Below are positions 2,741 to 26,891 of a stretch of DNA of 64,000 bases, piece by piece. Position numbers and translations under genes: made by a program. Source of the stretch: a virus (Duplodnaviria; Caudoviricetes); IMG/VR virus record IMGVR_UViG_3300010203_000021, positions 7,014-71,013 of that record; one strand, given 5' to 3'. The stretch's first letter is position 1; every line of letters begins with the position of its first letter. The notes under the pieces are model-generated. The model was not told the origin of the DNA and did no database searches. It worked only from the letters and a program-made list of their open reading frames with translations.

Positions 2741-3486
2741 AGGATTTCCTCATCGTCGGGAGTTGCGATAGGCGCAGGTGCGGGGAAGGAATTGGCAGCT
2801 CTTTCGCGCCAGAAATCGCGGCTTTCGTTCCAATGCTTTCCGCCGATTTCGTATTCTTTGAACTCGGGGTCTCTTCCGAAAAGACTCAGCGGGAATTCAG
2901 CAGCGATGGCGGTGTGCGCGTCGGGCGAAATGCGCGACAGCCTATCCATCATGTCGCGCCACAGTTGATTGACGCCAGCCATGACGTCGTACTGGTGCGC
3001 ACGGTTGCGGGCCTCGTATTCCTGCTTGTGCATGGCGTCGGCCAGCCGATCTAGCGCTTTGCTGTGGATGGCTTCCTTGACTTTTTGCAGCAGCTTGCGG
3101 CGCTCGCCATCGCCAATGCCGCCCTCGTTGTAGCGATTGGCCATGCAGTAGATAAATTCTTCCCGAACTTCCTCGCTTTCGGCCCAAAGCGATTTGGCGA
3201 GGTCCACGGGTTCAGCCCGCGCAACAATCTCGGTGACGAAATCAGAAATCGGGAGAACGAGCGCGCCGTCCCGGATCTCCATATTCGGGAGGACGCCGCG
3301 AGGGTCTGTTGACCTGCCACTCGAACCCCAGCGCGAGTCCTGCTTGATGACGGGCGTTCCAGCGGGGACCCGGACCTCAGTCGTGCCGTAAAAGCCAGAG
3401 ACGTGATAGACGTCCTCGCCTGTGTTGCCATCGGTATAATCGGGGGAAGCGACGGGGTGCTTCGTCAATGCAACAGTCTCGGTCAT
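2737..3486 (-). CDS. Hypothetical phage protein
   Basis: 249-aa ORF with natural composition, coupled to neighbours. Confidence 0.7.
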   Translation of the reverse strand: MTETVALTKHPVASPDYTDGNTGEDVYHVSGFYGTTEVRVPAGTPVIKQDSRWGSSGRSTDPRGVLPNMEIRDGALVLPISDFVTEIVARAEPVDLAKSLWAESEEVREEFIYCMANRYNEGGIGDGERRKLLQKVKEAIHSKALDRLADAMHKQEYEARNRAHQYDVMAGVNQLWRDMMDRLSRISPDAHTAIAAEFPLSLFGRDPEFKEYEIGGKHWNESRDFWRERAANSFPAPAPIATPDDEEIL

Positions 3487-20307: not shown

Positions 20308-21111
20308 ATGCCACCGCGGAAATTGAAGCCAGTATCTCTGGCGCCGGTGCGGCTGACGGATCGCCAGCCACGGAAATATCCTCGCGTCGATAAGACCGCG
20401 CTGGACGTCGCCGAAGAATTCCAGGACGAGCGCAGGAAATCGAAGCGCCAAATCGCGAAAGCCGAGCGCGCGCTGAAGGCGTTCCGCGACAAAGCCGGTG
20501 ATCGCCAGTCGTTGGGGCCGACGCCGGAACGCCTGCTCAAGGCCGCGGGCGCCGCCAGGATTGAGAAATTCGAGGAAAGCGCGGAGGTCGCCGGCAGCTT
20601 CAACGACGGCATGGTCGAGACGGTCGAAGTGACGCTGGCGCGGGTCCGACTTAGCGACGACGGGCCGATCACCCGCCTGTGCGCGCGCGGCCAGTTGGCG
20701 CCAGAGGACAAGGGGCTCAACGCCATCCTCGGCAAAGCAGCGCGCCGCCTGCGAGACGAATGGGCGCGGGCCGGGCGTGAGACGGTACAGGCGATCGACA
20801 CCACGCGCGAGCTTGTCGATGGCGGCCCCGGCCTGCTGGCGATGGAATCCGCGATTGACGCGTCGATCCACTATCGAGCGGCCCTCGCCGTAATCCCCGC
20901 TGGTTATCGGCCGTTCGTCGTCGGTGTCGTCATCGATCAGCAAGCGCCGAGGGTCGTCGGCCGAAAGATCACCGGCTATCGCAATGTGAACGCCGCGGCG
21001 GCGGTCTGCATGTGGGCGCTTCAGCGCGGGCTTCTGGCTCTGGCGAAGGACCGATACGGGCTGATCCAGGAAGACGAGGAAAACGCGGAAGCGGAAGGGG
21101 TTGAGGCATGA
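20308..21111 (+). CDS. DUF6456-like putative late transcription regulator (Q position)
   Basis: DGPITRLCARGQL...AARRLRDEW...YRAAL...VVIDQ...LQRGLLALA pattern; position after replication genes. Confidence 0.55.
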   Translation: MPPRKLKPVSLAPVRLTDRQPRKYPRVDKTALDVAEEFQDERRKSKRQIAKAERALKAFRDKAGDRQSLGPTPERLLKAAGAARIEKFEESAEVAGSFNDGMVETVEVTLARVRLSDDGPITRLCARGQLAPEDKGLNAILGKAARRLRDEWARAGRETVQAIDTTRELVDGGPGLLAMESAIDASIHYRAALAVIPAGYRPFVVGVVIDQQAPRVVGRKITGYRNVNAAAAVCMWALQRGLLALAKDRYGLIQEDEENAEAEGVEA

Positions 21112-22139
21112 CCGCTCGCGCCTATTACAACGAATTTGAGCCCGCTGCGGCCCATGTGCTGCGCCAACTGATCCGCGACGGCGTGATCGCGCCGGGCGAA
21201 GTCGATTCCCGTTCAATCAAGGAAGTGCAACCCGATGACCTTCGCGGCTTCACCCAAGCGCATTTCTTCGCCGGCGGCGGTCTCTGGTCCGTTGCAGCTC
21301 GACTTGCTGGATGGCCTGACGACAAACCCATCTGGACCGGCTCGTGTCCGTGCCAGCCGTTCAGCGTCGCAGGCAAAGGCGCCGGCGAAGACGACCCAAG
21401 GCATTTGTGGCCTGACTTCTTTCGCCTCATCCGCGCCGGTAGGCCCCCTGTCGTCATGGGAGAGCAGGTTAGCGGAAAGGCTGGCTATGGTTGGCTCGAC
21501 GGAATTCGATCTGATCTGGAGACAGAAGGTTACGCCAGCCGGGGCGTCGATATCCCGGCTTGCGCCGTCGACGCGCCGCACATCCGACAGCGGCTCTACT
21601 GGATCGCAGCCGGAGAGCAAGGCGTTGGCCTGGCCAACGCCTACGAGTTTGGCGCCGGCGAAGAACGGCAACAACGAGGCCGGGAATTCGTGTGGCTTGG
21701 TGGCGATCAGAACGCACGCCCTGGCGATGGAAGCGGCATGGCCGACGCCGGCGGTTGCGGACATCGAGGGTGGCCGGAAATCCAGGAGCGGGGCGCGCAA
21801 CGGGGAACTGTTGCTGAACGGCCTGGCGGCTGGAGAGGCGCGGCCATGGAGCGCGCCTCGCGCGACGGACGGCGAGAAGGGGGGCCCGAACATGGCATTT
21901 GGAGCGGGCGGCACGCCTCTGCCGGCCCAGGCATTTCAAACGGCACATTCTGGAGCGGCCACGAATGGCGCGTCGGCGCCGACGGCAAAGCGCGGCGCGT
22001 TAAACCCGGTCTTCGTCTTCTGGTTGATGGGATGGCCGGACGCGTGGGTCTCCTCCGCATTGGAGGCAATGGCATCGTGGTGCCCCTCGCGGCGGAAGTG
22101 ATCGCTGCGTTCATGGATGTCGAGGGGATGCGCCAATGA
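21108..22139 (+). CDS. C5-cytosine DNA methyltransferase, alpha polypeptide (motifs I-VIII and X)
   Basis: FFAGGG, GSCPCQPFS, EQV, HIRQRLYW, LRIGGNGIVVPLA; no motif IX in this frame. Confidence 0.88.
   Translation: MTARAYYNEFEPAAAHVLRQLIRDGVIAPGEVDSRSIKEVQPDDLRGFTQAHFFAGGGLWSVAARLAGWPDDKPIWTGSCPCQPFSVAGKGAGEDDPRHLWPDFFRLIRAGRPPVVMGEQVSGKAGYGWLDGIRSDLETEGYASRGVDIPACAVDAPHIRQRLYWIAAGEQGVGLANAYEFGAGEERQQRGREFVWLGGDQNARPGDGSGMADAGGCGHRGWPEIQERGAQRGTVAERPGGWRGAAMERASRDGRREGGPEHGIWSGRHASAGPGISNGTFWSGHEWRVGADGKARRVKPGLRLLVDGMAGRVGLLRIGGNGIVVPLAAEVIAAFMDVEGMRQ
21235..22101 (+). CDS. Nested +1-frame beta polypeptide of the C5 methyltransferase (motif IX, WPTP repeats)
   Basis: Open for 288 codons inside the alpha gene; WPTP, WPTP, WSAP repeats; LNPVFVFWLMGWPDAW resembles motif IX. 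Confidence 0.72.
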   Translation: MTFAASPKRISSPAAVSGPLQLDLLDGLTTNPSGPARVRASRSASQAKAPAKTTQGICGLTSFASSAPVGPLSSWESRLAERLAMVGSTEFDLIWRQKVTPAGASISRLAPSTRRTSDSGSTGSQPESKALAWPTPTSLAPAKNGNNEAGNSCGLVAIRTHALAMEAAWPTPAVADIEGGRKSRSGARNGELLLNGLAAGEARPWSAPRATDGEKGGPNMAFGAGGTPLPAQAFQTAHSGAATNGASAPTAKRGALNPVFVFWLMGWPDAWVSSALEAMASWCPSRRK

Positions 22140-22822
22140 CCCCCGATCTCTTTGCAGTCCGCCACGCCGCGGCGCCGATGCGAATCCTTGTTGGTTGCGA
22201 GACGAGCGGGATCGTGCGCCGCGCGTTCTCGGCCCGCGGGCATGATGTCTGGTCGGTCGATCTCCTTCCGGCCGAGGACGGCTCAAACCGCCACATCGTG
22301 GGCGACGTCCGCGATTATCTCAATGATAGCTGGGATTTGCTCGCGGTCATGCACCCGCCTTGCACCCGTCTGTGCAACAGCGGTGTCCGCTGGCTCTCCG
22401 TCCCGCCGCCCGGGCGCACGCGAGAAGAAATGTGGGCCGAGTTGGATGAGGGCGCCGCTCTGTTCTCGGATTGCTGGAACGCGCCGATCGAGCGTGTCTG
22501 CGTCGAAAACCCCGTCATGCACCGGCATGGCCGCGAGCGCATCCGCAACTACCAGCGCCCGCAGATCGTGCAACCGTGGTGGTTCGGTGAGCCATTTTTC
22601 AAGGCGACGGGCCTCTATCTGCGGGGACTTGCGCCGTTGCAGCCAACGCATTGCCTGACGCCGCCGGGGCAGGGGACGCCAGAACACAAGCGCTGGTCAG
22701 CCGTTCATCGCGCGCCGCCGAGCCCGGATCGTTGGAAGGACCGGAGCCGGTTCTTCCCCGGCATTGCCGCCGCCATGGCCGCGCAATGGTCGCCCCTCGT
22801 CGAGGATGAGGCCAGCGCATGA
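22136..22822 (+). CDS. Short C5-methyltransferase-like phage protein
   Basis: ILVGCETSGIVRRAF, HPPCT, ENP, PWWFG...K.T.L.L.GL, RS..FPGIA.AMA.QW. Confidence 0.8.
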   Translation: MTPDLFAVRHAAAPMRILVGCETSGIVRRAFSARGHDVWSVDLLPAEDGSNRHIVGDVRDYLNDSWDLLAVMHPPCTRLCNSGVRWLSVPPPGRTREEMWAELDEGAALFSDCWNAPIERVCVENPVMHRHGRERIRNYQRPQIVQPWWFGEPFFKATGLYLRGLAPLQPTHCLTPPGQGTPEHKRWSAVHRAPPSPDRWKDRSRFFPGIAAAMAAQWSPLVEDEASA

Positions 22823-23010
22823 CAAACACCCCAAAACCAGTCGCTTGCCCAGCCTGCAACGGGATTCGTGGCCATCATGTCGAGGGATGCCGTGTCTTCC
22901 TAGAAACCAAGGAGATGGGCCGGCTCGAAAAGGAAACCTACGAACAATGGCTGGACCGGCAGTTCGCGCGCTGGGCGGCTGAGGATGAAAAACGAAAGGG
23001 CGTAAAGTGA
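22819..23010 (+). CDS. Small hypothetical protein
   Basis: ATGA coupling; CPAC...H...C. Confidence 0.55.
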   Translation: MTNTPKPVACPACNGIRGHHVEGCRVFLETKEMGRLEKETYEQWLDRQFARWAAEDEKRKGVK

Positions 23011-23219
23011 TCGACAAGCAACAAGAACTCATCGCCCGGATGACCGGCGGCGAGCCATTCACATGCGGCGCTCTGTGCTCGTTGGCGCGCGGCAAAAGCG
23101 AGCGCTTTGCAATCATCATCACGATCTTGAAGCTCTGGTGCTTCGGCAAAATCGCGTTCACGCGCGAGGCCGGTCGCGTTGTGTGGCGCGCCGTGGCGCG
23201 GGAGGGCGGGAGGGCATGA
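23007..23219 (+). CDS. Small hypothetical protein
   Basis: GTGA coupling. Confidence 0.5.
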   Translation: MIDKQQELIARMTGGEPFTCGALCSLARGKSERFAIIITILKLWCFGKIAFTREAGRVVWRAVAREGGRA

Positions 23220-23699
23220 GCCGCCGGCTGATGAAATCCCACGATCGCTGGATCAAGTGCGGGCATGGCTCTCGGCGCCGCGTTCGACGGGTGCAGGTTT
23301 GGCTTGGGCGCTTGGACCCATGCCGAACGATCCGGCCTCGATCATCGGCGCCGTCGGACCTCTGGGCGACGATTTGCGCTGCTGCGATGGCCGAAATCAG
23401 CGCATCGGGGCAAATCAACGGGATAAAAAATTAATGCTTTTAATATCAATAAGATAGGTTGAAAAATCGGCCAATATTCCACATTGGAATAGAAAACGAT
23501 ATTGACATAGCTATCTGGAATGATTCGAATAGGCACATCAAGAATTGCGAATCGATTCAAGCGGTTCGCTTTAGACGCCGCCAGCTTCATCGGGCCGCCC
23601 TTATCGTCCAACACCGACCCACCCGGGTCGAGATATTGGGAGGTCGCGGGGCTGGCGGCGGCAGTTTCGCTCGACATGGGCCACAGGATCCAAGAGGGG

Positions 23700-24260
23700 A
23701 GCGTCGCGCGGATTTGGGTTTGACCCAATGCCCTCCGGAAGCCGCCGATGTCAAAGGATATCGGGCCAACGGCCAAGGGAACAGCGACCAGCCGGCCGAG
23801 CATAGAAGCGCCGACCTCCAGCTTTATGTTGGGGGGCGGATCGGGTGAAAGTCCCGAGGGCCGCGAGTTTCGCCCGAATGGGCACGAGTTTCATGCGGCA
23901 GCGCGGAAGGACGCGCAACGGCTTGTCGGAGTGAAGGCGGCCTAATCGACCCGCCGGCGAAAGCGACAAGGGCAAGCTGTCGAGGGTGAACCTCCAAGCC
24001 GGTTTCAAGCCCGACCCGCATGAACATCTTTCAGGCCGCCTCGCAAATTCCTCAGTCCCAAAGACTTTTGAATTTTTTAGGGAGCGGGGCGGCCTGAAGC
24101 AGTTTCGAGCGGAAGCGCGGTGCGTAGAGACAACCCGCGCCACACGGCGAAAGCCTTCAGTAAGTGGCTGGTACGCCCCGCAAGCTTCGGCTGGGTGCGG
24201 GCAACGTTGCAAACCAGATAGGACAGCCCGGCAGGGCCCGCCGCGTTGTCTGCCGCTCGA
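23700..24260 (+). ncRNA. Candidate large structured ncRNA (multi-domain, GNRA/UUCG loops, pseudoknot)
   Basis: Many nested perfect helices (see findings); no convincing ORF. Boundaries are approximate. Confidence 0.65.
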
Positions 24261-24298
24261 TTACCACGCGTTAATCCTCGACATGAGAGGCTAGGCAA

Positions 24299-24430
24299 AT
24301 GGACGATGCTACTATCCGGCTTAACGCTTTGAGCTTGGCTGTCCAGATTGGGCGCGATCTCCCTCCCGATGAGGTTTTGGCCCTGGCAAAGAAGATCGCG
24401 GATTTCATCGCAAAGGGCGCTTCCGTCTAA
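24299..24430 (+). CDS. 43-aa protein missed by the ORF track (MDDATIRLNALSLAVQIGRDLPPDEVLALAKKIADFIAKGASV)
   Basis: GAGAGG RBS, ATG 24299, TAA 24428-24430; amphipathic two-helix pattern. Confidence 0.65.
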   Translation: MDDATIRLNALSLAVQIGRDLPPDEVLALAKKIADFIAKGASV

Positions 24431-24437
24431 TTCAGTT

Positions 24438-24513
24438 TCGAGCGGCGCACGCCAGCGGGACGCTGCTGGACTTAGCTGGGTTTGCCGGGTTCGATTCCTC
24501 GGGGGCCGCTCGA
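24438..24513 (+). ncRNA. 76-nt tRNA-like element (non-canonical)
   Basis: Terminal stem TCGAGCGGC/GCCGCTCGA, hairpin CAGCG-GGA-CGCTG, T-arm GGTTCGATTCC; no proper anticodon arm. Confidence 0.45.
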
Positions 24514-24656
24514 ATCTTCATCGTGGATTTGCATCCGATAATGCAATTTTATCGGTCCTCGCCATTTCCCGACATGCGCGGCGTATTCGCGCCCACAACC
24601 CCATCAAAAGCGCCGCGAGCAATCGTCCGCCGAGCGCACATGTTGGACCCAAAATC

Positions 24657-25204: not shown

Positions 25205-25343
25205 GCCCTTCCAAATTCACCCTTCTGCCAAGAGGGGCTGATGAGTGCGACCGTTTCCCAGCTTCTCCGGCCGGGGCGGTCGCTTTGCTGTGACCACCCG
25301 TGCGCACTCCGGGCCTTGGCAGGCCCCGGCTGGAGAAGAACCG

Positions 25344-26156
25344 ATGAAACTTGTCCCGTTCGCGTTTGAGAATGTGCCTGTCCGCGTCGCCGACCAGAAT
25401 GGCGAGCCGTGGTTCGTGGCCAAGGATGCCGTTTCTGCACTTGGCAAGACGTGGGATGGTCATTCTCTCGATACGATTCCAGACGCTTGGAAAGGGGTGG
25501 TAAAACTTACCACCCCCGGCGGCGACCAGGAATTGGTCACGATCAACGAGGCAGCGGTCTACAAACTGGCCTTTCGGTCGAACAAGCCCCAAGCTGACCG
25601 CTTCACAAATTGGGTCGCCGGCGACGTCCTTCCGACAATTCGCAAGACCGGAGGATATGGCCTCCCGGCCGACGATGCCGAGCGCGAGTTCGGTATGGTC
25701 AAGAGCCTTGTCCGCGATCTGAAGAAGGCGCGCGACGAGGCCGCAGAATATTGCGCTGAGTTGCGGCGCGGCGTTGAGGATTTGCGCGAGCAAAACCTTC
25801 TCGCCGCGCGCCGCCCCGCCGGCTTTTCCAGTTCGCGCGACTACAAGCTCGCCATCACTGTCGCCGACGAGCAACGCATCCCCGTCGAAGGGCGCGGGCG
25901 TCTCGTCCATTCGATGAAGGCCGCGCTGATCAGGTTCACGGCAGAGCGTAATTTTCCGCAGCCCCGCGAAGAACAGCGAGACGACGGCAGGAAGCCGCGC
26001 CCCATGTTCCATGTTGACGCCATCGCGGCGTGGTTGGTCGCGGAAGGTTATGCCATGATCGCCGCGCATCTCGCCAAGCGTCCGTTCGCACGCCAGCAAA
26101 ATTCGGCGCAGAACGTGTTCAGCTTTGACCAAAAGCGCAAGGCTGGAAAGGCATGA
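25344..26156 (+). CDS. BRO-N family antirepressor-like protein
   Basis: FAFENVPVRV...GEPWFVAKD...INEAAVYKLAFRSNKPQA.RF..WV..DVLPTIRKTGGY. Confidence 0.92.
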   Translation: MKLVPFAFENVPVRVADQNGEPWFVAKDAVSALGKTWDGHSLDTIPDAWKGVVKLTTPGGDQELVTINEAAVYKLAFRSNKPQADRFTNWVAGDVLPTIRKTGGYGLPADDAEREFGMVKSLVRDLKKARDEAAEYCAELRRGVEDLREQNLLAARRPAGFSSSRDYKLAITVADEQRIPVEGRGRLVHSMKAALIRFTAERNFPQPREEQRDDGRKPRPMFHVDAIAAWLVAEGYAMIAAHLAKRPFARQQNSAQNVFSFDQKRKAGKA

Positions 26157-26417: not shown

Positions 26418-26891
26418 ATGCCGCGCCCATCTGAATTCACCGCTGAAAAGGCCGATGAAATCGTCTCACGCCTCTTGAGCGGCGAAAGCATGCGGAAGAT
26501 TTGCCGCGATGACCACATGCCAAACCGGCAGACGGTCATTAGATGGCAGTTGGCGAATGCTGATTTCGCGGCCAAGTGTGCGCGCGCGAGGGAGCAGCGG
26601 GCCGACGACGACTTCGACCGCATGAGCGAGATCGAGGACGACACGCTTTCAGGCGCGATTGATCCACAAGTCGCCAGGGTGGTGCTCTCGTCCATGCAGT
26701 GGCGCACGGCGAAGCTCGCCCCGAAGAAGTACGGCGACAAGCAGCAGATCGAGCACTCTGGCCCCGGGGGTGGTCCGATCCAGACCGAGGAAATCAGCGC
26801 GCGTGACCGCATCGCTAGCCGCCTCGCTCGCATCGCTTCCAGAAGACGAGAGGGCGGCGATCCTGGCAAGCCTGACGGACCAGGAAATTGA
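26418..26891 (+). CDS. terS: Terminase small subunit
   Basis: RPSEFT.E.ADEI..RL.SGESMRKIC...MP...T..RW; RVVLSSMQWR.AKL.PKKYGDK. Confidence 0.92.
   Translation: MPRPSEFTAEKADEIVSRLLSGESMRKICRDDHMPNRQTVIRWQLANADFAAKCARAREQRADDDFDRMSEIEDDTLSGAIDPQVARVVLSSMQWRTAKLAPKKYGDKQQIEHSGPGGGPIQTEEISARDRIASRLARIASRRREGGDPGKPDGPGN

Follow-up and report, generated by a model that had tools for sequence, protein, structure and literature searches.

A tRNA-framed family of phage RNAs and a probable array of small RNA units upstream of phage terminase genes

Non-tRNA RNAs can embed a tRNA-like elbow, as do the Y RNAs of the YrlA type (RF02553) and tmRNA in its tRNA-like domain. In phages, RNAC and RNAD of T4 (species 1 and 2) fold and mature in a tRNA-like manner, GOLLD RNA often has tRNA-like elements adjacent to it, and the c4 antisense RNA of P1 and P7 (RF01695) is a small, structured RNA released by cleavage from a longer transcript, ahead of an anti-repressor gene. 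RNAC and RNAD are small RNAs from the T4 tRNA region, and their roles are unknown (PMC3014915). The family described here, which we call family A1, may be included in a 2023 catalogue of ~10,000 viral RNA candidates, some of them described as tRNA-like (PMC10690425).

We analyzed a window of 64,000 nucleotides (64 kb) taken from a provirus record in IMG/VR, of freshwater metagenome origin (~61% G+C). Early genes and terminase genes are separated in this window by an ORF-poor gap (~23435-24298), in which a preliminary description had read a single ornate RNA of ~550 nt (23700-24260) resembling GOLLD and ROOL. In our reading, to which we give a probability of about three in four, the gap holds a cluster of small non-coding RNA units, on the plus strand like the flanking genes and each folding alone, one of which (23884-24030) belongs to a family built on a tRNA-like frame.

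Genes around the gap and database searches

The RNA region lies 2.1 kb upstream of terS, among the following features:

21108-22139 and 22136-22822, plus strand: DNA methyltransferase genes (phrog_757)
Up to 23434, plus strand: small ORFs 5' of the gap
23007-23219 and 23216-23434, plus strand: two small ORFs joined by an ATGA overlap
23342-23803, minus strand: 153-codon ORF from the source's gene caller, a singleton cluster, overlapping the AT-rich spacer and the first RNA units
23435-23560, no strand assigned: AT-rich spacer after the stop of ORF 23216-23434, with the palindrome TTCCACATTGGAA at 23477-23489 and TTGACA at 23502-23507
24299-24430, plus strand: 43-codon ORF flanked on either side by an RNA unit and listed as a gene in the source collection
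3' of 24430 and before the Bro-N/Ant gene, plus strand: further small ORFs
25245-26156, plus strand: Bro-N/Ant (anti-repressor) gene, ~1 kb downstream of the RNA region
26418-26891, plus strand: terS of the Sf6 type, followed by terL

A related contig from a drinking-water metagenome, hereafter X2, informs on the coding status of these segments. Its differences from the window in ORFs 23007-23219 and 23216-23434 fall mostly at third codon positions, so that both are probably real genes; exact copies of their translations were not found in the protein collection. The region of the 43-codon ORF differs from X2 by one change in 198 nt, and the sole Pfam match of this ORF is below threshold. Within the gap, X2 substitutions are without codon periodicity and are accompanied by a one-nucleotide insertion, no protein family is matched by 23435-24298 in any frame, and the 153-codon minus-strand ORF called across part of it is a singleton and probably spurious. 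On these grounds we treat ~23435-24298 as non-coding. The preliminary description had likewise seen non-coding, structured RNA-type sequence on the plus strand, a view further borne out by the same-strand tRNA genes and the covariation described below. The AT-rich spacer may be a promoter or operator of the RNA array, with a putative start site; consensus scans for promoters and terminators around the RNA region found nothing, and no RNA run was listed among the sequencing runs that contain the sequence.

Known RNA families are not recognized here. Rfam 15 at gathering scores gave no match in the whole window, and at E values up to 10 the segment 23300-24700 gave chance-level matches only (microRNA models, RT-17 and similar). 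Comparison by cmscan with GOLLD, ROOL, OLE, HEARO and introns had been proposed in the preliminary description; none of these matched, nor did any window sequence match the Rfam models for group I and group II introns considered individually, C4 antisense RNA or YrlA. ARAGORN called no tRNA or tmRNA gene over the window. Locus searches based on TerL in viral and genome collections returned nothing, no similar RNA was seen in three of the contigs carrying TerS homologues, and blastn against GenBank phages and plasmids found no match, either for the window region or for the L125 island discussed below.

Several sequence probes were also tried and discarded. The 14-mer GCAGTTTCGAGCGG gave chance matches only; the pattern CGAATGGG..AGTTTC..AAAGCGACAA gave two chance matches in AT-rich coding DNA of metagenome contigs; the pattern AGTTTCGAGCGG..CCGCTCGR gave, among the matches listed for genome contigs, chance matches only; and a three-block pattern had no match in viral contigs.

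Family A1

On the basis of closing helices, lead-ins and hairpins, we distinguish the following units, of which the fourth is the member of family A1:

23572-23664, plus strand: long hairpin closed by CGCCGCCAGC/GCTGGCGGCG, a perfect 10-bp inverted repeat, with GC and the first AGTTTC after it
23663-23833, plus strand: structured segment starting with AGTTTC (23663), within the block replaced in X2
23869-23884, plus strand: 16-nt punctuation hairpin TTCGCCCGAATGGGCA (GCCC-GAAU-GGGC), with AG(U) before and CGAG-UUUC after it
23884-24030, plus strand: tRNA-shaped small RNA of 147 nt, matched by the family A1 covariance model
24028-24100, plus strand: stand-alone hairpin of ~16 bp, UUUCAGGCCGCC.../...GGCGGCCUGAAG, with an A/U-rich apex and GC plus AGTTTC directly after it
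24101-24262, plus strand: stem-closed multibranch unit, AGTTTC plus TCGAGCGG ... CCGCTCGA, recognized by inverted repeats
24433-24517, plus strand: tRNA-like unit with an AGTTTC lead-in, the closing helix TTCGAGCGGC/GCCGCTCGAA, a 7-bp hairpin and the canonical T-loop GGTTCGATTCC

Two patterns gave access to homologous loci. One, made from an AGTTTC-led closing helix, found locus L125; the other, the 16-mer TTCGCCCGAATGGGCA, common to the window and L129, led to loci with clear relatives of 23887-24027. The frame of the family was first seen by aligning the window unit with three such loci, L274, L270 and L296. In these four sequences the closing helix is different in each, and is followed by two linker nucleotides, a 5-bp D-like hairpin with the loop GA-N-GGA, a variable middle of ~50-130 nt, and a 5-bp T-like hairpin with the 8-nt loop UAUCAAGC, immediately after which comes the 3' strand of the closing helix. 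This order is that of the acceptor stem, D arm and T arm of tRNA, with the anticodon arm replaced by a phage-specific insert.

We collected the family by scanning IMG/VR for the pattern of the T-like hairpin, which yielded at least 119 loci, nearly all of them real. A seed model, R1, gave 99 matches in 100 sources, and the frame is kept in at least ~95 homologues, on unrelated IMG/VR phage contigs where the unit stands alone. The preliminary description had named covariation among homologues as a check on its helices, and for the A1 unit of the window such covariation was found. In the R1 alignment, which is itself fitted to the model, 97.1% of the cells at frame positions are paired, versus 72% in shuffled and 25-38% in slid-partner controls; changes on both sides are seen at 17 of the 19 frame pairs (422 cells), and none of 500 shuffles attains the observed values on any of five measures. 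Most of the covariation comes from the closing helix and the D-like stem, neither of which was selected for by the collecting pattern. The near-invariance of the T-like hairpin stems in part from the collecting pattern, and the conservation of its loop is overestimated, because the loci were collected by their T-loop pattern. GU/UG cells outnumber AC/CA cells (27 versus 15), in favor of the plus strand. Closing helices are mostly 7-10 bp long (mode 8, with a tail to 24 bp), and unit lengths range from 104 to 240 nt. A second subtype, with the D-loop GAAAGCAGA and a UUAGCGC-like T-loop, is present in L125, L129, L271 and L301 and scores 25-39 bits.

A second model, R2, was rebuilt from 41 loci with the window excluded. 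The unit 23884-24030 scores 74.2 bits with R2 (E 2.8e-16) and is the sole significant match in the 64-kb window with filters off. Its acceptor-like closing helix, TTCATGCGG/CCGCATGAA, pairs 23890-23898 with 24016-24024; the D-like hairpin occupies 23901-23916 (stem GCGCG/CGCGC, loop GAAGGA); a variable cargo (23917-23997) takes the place of the anticodon arm; and the T-like hairpin, at 23998-24015 with the loop UUUCAAGC, stacks directly on the closing helix. The unit holds 18 of the 19 family pairs, the exception being a C-A mismatch in the T-like stem. Both loops fit the family consensus GA-N-GGA and UAUCAAGC, the second with one change (U for A). Against shuffles, 23887-24027 has an MFE z of -1.7. 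We therefore place the window copy, slightly diverged, in a phage RNA family that is large and unannotated.

This membership also sorts the helices proposed earlier. All of them are present in the sequence at the coordinates given; the extent to which they exceed chance varies, covariation being strong for TTCATGCGG/CCGCATGAA and GCGCG/CGCGC, while the whole block reaches a z of only -2.1. Two mutually exclusive pairings had been listed in the interior of the unit. CGGCTTG/CAAGCCG is not supported, because CAAGCCGG belongs to the family-conserved T-like hairpin at 23998-24015; the other, CTTGTCG/CGACAAG, is compatible with the family fold and lies, like GGCGG/CCGCC and GAGG/CCTC, within the variable cargo. 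Pieces of this cargo (TTGTC ... AAAGCGACAA ... GG-GUGAA-CC) are found again in an L125 unit that has another frame, where the cargo hairpin has its strands exchanged (CCGCC/GGCGG). That parts of the cargo recur in another frame hints that the cargo is portable.

Rfam finds only tRNAs, suhB and int-alpA in 20 family loci, from which we conclude that family A1 is absent from Rfam 15. The earlier suggestion of a possible new class therefore holds for at least one part of the region. A full-text literature search on the conserved motifs retrieved no relevant paper and no function proposed for the family.

Unannotated copies are present in two named phages: Caulobacter phage DMCA (L423, PQ480021.1 25549-25692; R2 67 bits) and Komagataeibacter phage phiKX1 (R2 68 bits), in the latter ~110 nt after a tRNA-Met gene. 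The DMCA copy is located within a 546-nt gap between a transposase gene and an integrase gene, where attP is expected. Among the alphaproteobacterial genomes sampled, at least 1 of 151 carries a copy (72.8 bits), and R2 had no match in five named alphaproteobacterial genomes, few candidates being scored per genome in either survey.

The neighborhoods of family members are diverse, and include genes for a replication initiator, RecT, HNH endonucleases, an exonuclease, thymidylate synthase, a Q-like antiterminator, integrase and terL; in one cluster of relatives, the member lies 161 nt after the Q-like antiterminator gene. The position upstream of terminase genes, emphasized in the preliminary description, is thus incidental, since the family adjoins replication, recombination, HNH, antiterminator, integrase and terminase genes alike. 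Clustering of the ORFs that neighbor family members revealed no protein family tied to the RNA. A tRNA gene is found within 500 nt of 13 of the 96 copies, on the same strand every time, and nowhere in the locus examined for 79 of the 96. A T-run follows the closing helix in only 11 of 94 members, which argues against this helix being a terminator in general.

Locus L274 offers two further observations. The near-identical phages L256 (L256:1930-2200) and L274 (reverse complement, 935-1055) share a unit closed by TTCATGCAG/CTGCATGAA, the interior of which is a structured RNA in L274 and, in L256, a 63-codon ORF (L256:1981-2172) with no Pfam match. Because the two interiors differ, one closing helix can bracket either a small gene or an RNA. 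In L274 itself, 3070-3154 on the minus strand, immediately downstream of the RNA array, matches Rfam suhB/mmgR at 43 bits (gathering score 41); from this match in a phage contig, the alphaproteobacterial sRNA family may be phage-carried.

Other units, spacer hairpin and block exchange

Comparative support is available for one of about six units, and the rest are predicted from thermodynamics, with z values of -1.4 to -5.0. Thermodynamics alone decides little at this G+C content. The comparison with dinucleotide shuffles that had been proposed for the region shows 23820-24270 as a whole to be modestly more stable than its shuffles, with z -2.1 on the plus strand and -1.85 on the minus strand.

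The long hairpin 23572-23664 has an MFE z of -3.7 and the stand-alone hairpin 24028-24100 one of -5.0; in either case none of 200 shuffles is as stable. The second of these contains the 11-bp stem 24030/24088 of the preliminary description, which extends to ~16 bp. In the multibranch unit 24101-24262, the loop of the first hairpin contains AGACAAC, which could pair with GTTGTCT, located immediately 5' of the closing 3' strand, in the putative pseudoknot of the preliminary description. The closing helix TCGAGCGG/CCGCTCGA, also listed earlier, is present here and, together with its AGTTTC lead-in, in L125/L129 with one wobble-compatible change; however, the unit that it encloses has as a whole a z of -1.4 and only 9 bits with R2, and no significant relative. 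The tRNA-like unit 24433-24517 (MFE z -2.55; R2 10.8 bits, not significant) received no tRNA call from ARAGORN or the Rfam tRNA model. The segment 23663-23833 is weakly similar to L258 and L286 (nhmmer E 0.004). In an nhmmer comparison with 172 phage loci, the window units other than A1 had no significant relatives.

The 16-nt hairpin at 23869-23884 directly precedes the tRNA-shaped unit. The preliminary description had proposed a helix GGGCGGA/TTCGCCC at this place; its two strands are present, but they compete with this conserved hairpin. Exact copies of TTCGCCCGAATGGGCA occur in 52 IMG/VR loci, five of which have two copies 110-260 nt apart, and elsewhere the motif has 53 distinct phage contexts, with conserved flanks and usually ACGAG after it. 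A tRNA gene lies within 300 nt in 19 of the 53 contexts, always on the same strand. A frequent place for the motif is 2-3 nt 3' of the CCA end of a tRNA gene, or immediately ahead of a following RNA unit. When the search was loosened to admit covarying variants, mostly noise came back; TTCGCCCGAATGGGCA is without covariation support and conserved as sequence only. It is not an obligatory partner of family A1, as it is near only 4 of 96 members. It may be viewed in its own right as a recurrent motif of phage non-coding regions (window 23869-23884; L253-L303), of which we found no published description.

A second recurrent sequence, AGTTTC, occurs five times on the plus strand between 23663 and 24439, when ~8 copies per strand are expected over the whole 64 kb. 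Each copy is directly 5' of a closing helix, and the units 24028-24100, 24101-24262 and 24433-24517 all follow AGTTTC or a near variant. The X2 contig has 23671-24028 (358 nt) exchanged for 87 other nucleotides, between flanks that are 93-99% identical. The borders of this exchange are exact: the replaced block opens just past one AGTTTC lead-in and closes where the tRNA-shaped unit ends.

A comparable extended island was found at L125:3830-4910 (minus strand) and in L129 (G001:C1:25819-26881). It is a non-coding island of 1065 nt, 87% identical between its two copies, which are sharply bordered and differ in gene context; the L125 copy lies between a lambda-type terL and head genes. The island contains two AGTTTC-led units and has no Rfam match. 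Its L129 copy shows many one-nucleotide indels and an internal segment that has been replaced. A series of short blocks, in collinear order, is common to the island and the window. The fold of the L125 island has a z of -0.3, and L128/L129 have no match to the Rfam GOLLD and ROOL models.

No conserved pairing was seen between units of the window array. Together with the separate closing helices, the occurrence of the A1 unit alone elsewhere and the X2 exchange, this argues for an array of separate units and not one 550-nt fold. The single ornate RNA of GOLLD/ROOL type proposed initially is therefore abandoned, in view of its separate units, exchanged blocks and lack of an Rfam match.

The case for such a single RNA should nevertheless be set out. 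An integrated RNA of at least 550 nt, with the helices as domains of one particle, would account for the dense helices, the GNRA and UUCG loops, a stretch of more than 0.7 kb without a convincing ORF and the adjacent tRNA-like elements, and the comparable 1065-nt island of L125/L129 moves as one block. We nonetheless consider it very improbable: GOLLD and ROOL go unmatched even at E up to 10, the best-defined unit stands alone in at least ~95 other phage contigs, X2 replaces 358 nt at unit borders, no conserved inter-unit pairing is seen, and z is only -2.1 for the whole block and -0.3 for the L125 island. We may also ask whether the region acts in cis as a leader, either as an antitermination RNA similar to put of HK022 or as an immI-type antisense control of 25245-26156 similar to P1 c4. 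The RNA region is on the same strand as, and upstream of, small ORFs, the Bro-N/Ant gene and terS/terL, it is preceded by the AT-rich segment with its palindrome, and the relatives placed 161 nt after a Q-like antiterminator gene would suit such a role. However, neither C4 nor any other cis-regulatory model of Rfam matches, and other members have unrelated surroundings, near an integrase gene or after tRNA-Met. Because the neighborhoods of the family are many and unrelated, a trans-acting or autonomous RNA fits better, and we regard a leader as improbable.

Two other explanations do without a functional RNA. Decayed, functionless remains of a phage tRNA gene cluster could explain why 24433-24517 has a canonical T-loop yet receives no tRNA call, and why, in the tRNA-shaped unit of the window, one pair of the T-like stem is mismatched and the loop reads U instead of A. 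Against this, very diverse phages have kept the loops GA-N-GGA and UAUCAAGC, which are not tRNA sequences, with stems that covary; this argues for selection on the family A1 RNA itself and leaves decay a slim chance, below that of the single large RNA. The segment could also act as DNA, as a pac or cos site, origin repeats or recombination sites, its hairpins being bound by proteins or formed in single-stranded DNA. Its location 2.1 kb upstream of terS, its repeated short motifs, a 16-mer conserved by sequence and not by covariation, and block exchange at the motifs are all in line with this, but compensatory change that keeps pairing as sequences diverge would not be expected of protein sites in double-stranded DNA, the tRNA genes nearby all share the strand of the RNA, and family members lie far from packaging genes. 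To a DNA element we give the lowest credence of all.

Possible processing and comparison with known RNAs

Taking the gap as an array of separate RNA units, we may hypothesize how these are made. The array could be co-transcribed with the flanking plus-strand genes, or transcribed from the AT-rich spacer 23435-23560. Its units would then be cut apart from one precursor at the repeated AGUUUC junctions, between G and U, and at the spacer hairpin. RNase E favors single-stranded, U-rich sites in which a uridine stands two nucleotides 3' of the cleavage position (PMC5222698); because the AGUUUC junctions resemble such sites, they are candidate release sites. A cut between G and U would leave the helix closed by UUC...GAA as a protected end. 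The spacer hairpins found after tRNA 3' ends in other phages might be the same kind of punctuation mark, and maturation of the array would parallel that of phage tRNA clusters. As to function, we can only speculate that the tRNA-like frame confers stability, or recruits tRNA-handling factors or mimics their substrates, and that the variable insert does a specific job by protein binding or RNA pairing.

A broader view, which we put forward as doubtful, is that phages of Alphaproteobacteria, and perhaps others, possess a cassette system for non-coding RNAs, in which a constant frame and punctuation would serve both as processing signals and as recombination joints, in the manner of an integron-like market. 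Cargo arms, whole RNA units and small ORFs would then be swapped between phages, and the cargo would be aimed at functions of the host or of rival phages.

Family A1 has at least ~100 confirmed copies in IMG/VR without an Rfam entry or annotation, and the copies in cultured Caulobacter and Komagataeibacter phages make it testable at the bench. The combination of a constant tRNA-like frame and a hypervariable insert suggests a common phage scaffold for many small RNAs. Such a scaffold, if real, would make accessible a large, unexplored layer of the interactions of phages with hosts or with one another, and could possibly serve as a natural scaffold for designed RNAs. For annotation, the array would explain one ORF-free, GC-rich gap of the sort that gene callers fill with spurious ORFs, probably including 23342-23803.

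Among known RNAs, tRNA itself (RF00005) resembles family A1 in its acceptor-like helix, in the linker of two nucleotides, in a D-like hairpin containing GG and in a T-like hairpin set directly against the 3' strand of the closing helix. The family differs from tRNA in being without an anticodon arm, a CCA end or a fixed 7-bp acceptor, and in its 8-nt T-like loop of other sequence. YrlA and tmRNA keep a canonical T-loop and D-loop, whereas the loops of family A1 differ, and no Ro60-like gene was seen nearby. Like GOLLD (RF01998) and ROOL (RF03087), the window region is phage-borne, non-coding, rich in structure and near tRNA-like elements; however, it is composed of independent units of 70-170 nt and not of one 500-800 nt fold. 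As with c4 of P1 and P7, an Ant/Bro-N gene lies downstream, here at 1 kb, although family neighborhoods are not tied to ant genes. The nearest documented analogues, likened by description only, are RNAC and RNAD of T4, which are also small phage non-coding RNAs beside tRNA genes. Family A1 is set apart from them by its own loops, GA-N-GGA and UAUCAAGC, by its hypervariable insert, and by the 79 of 96 copies that have no tRNA gene in the locus.
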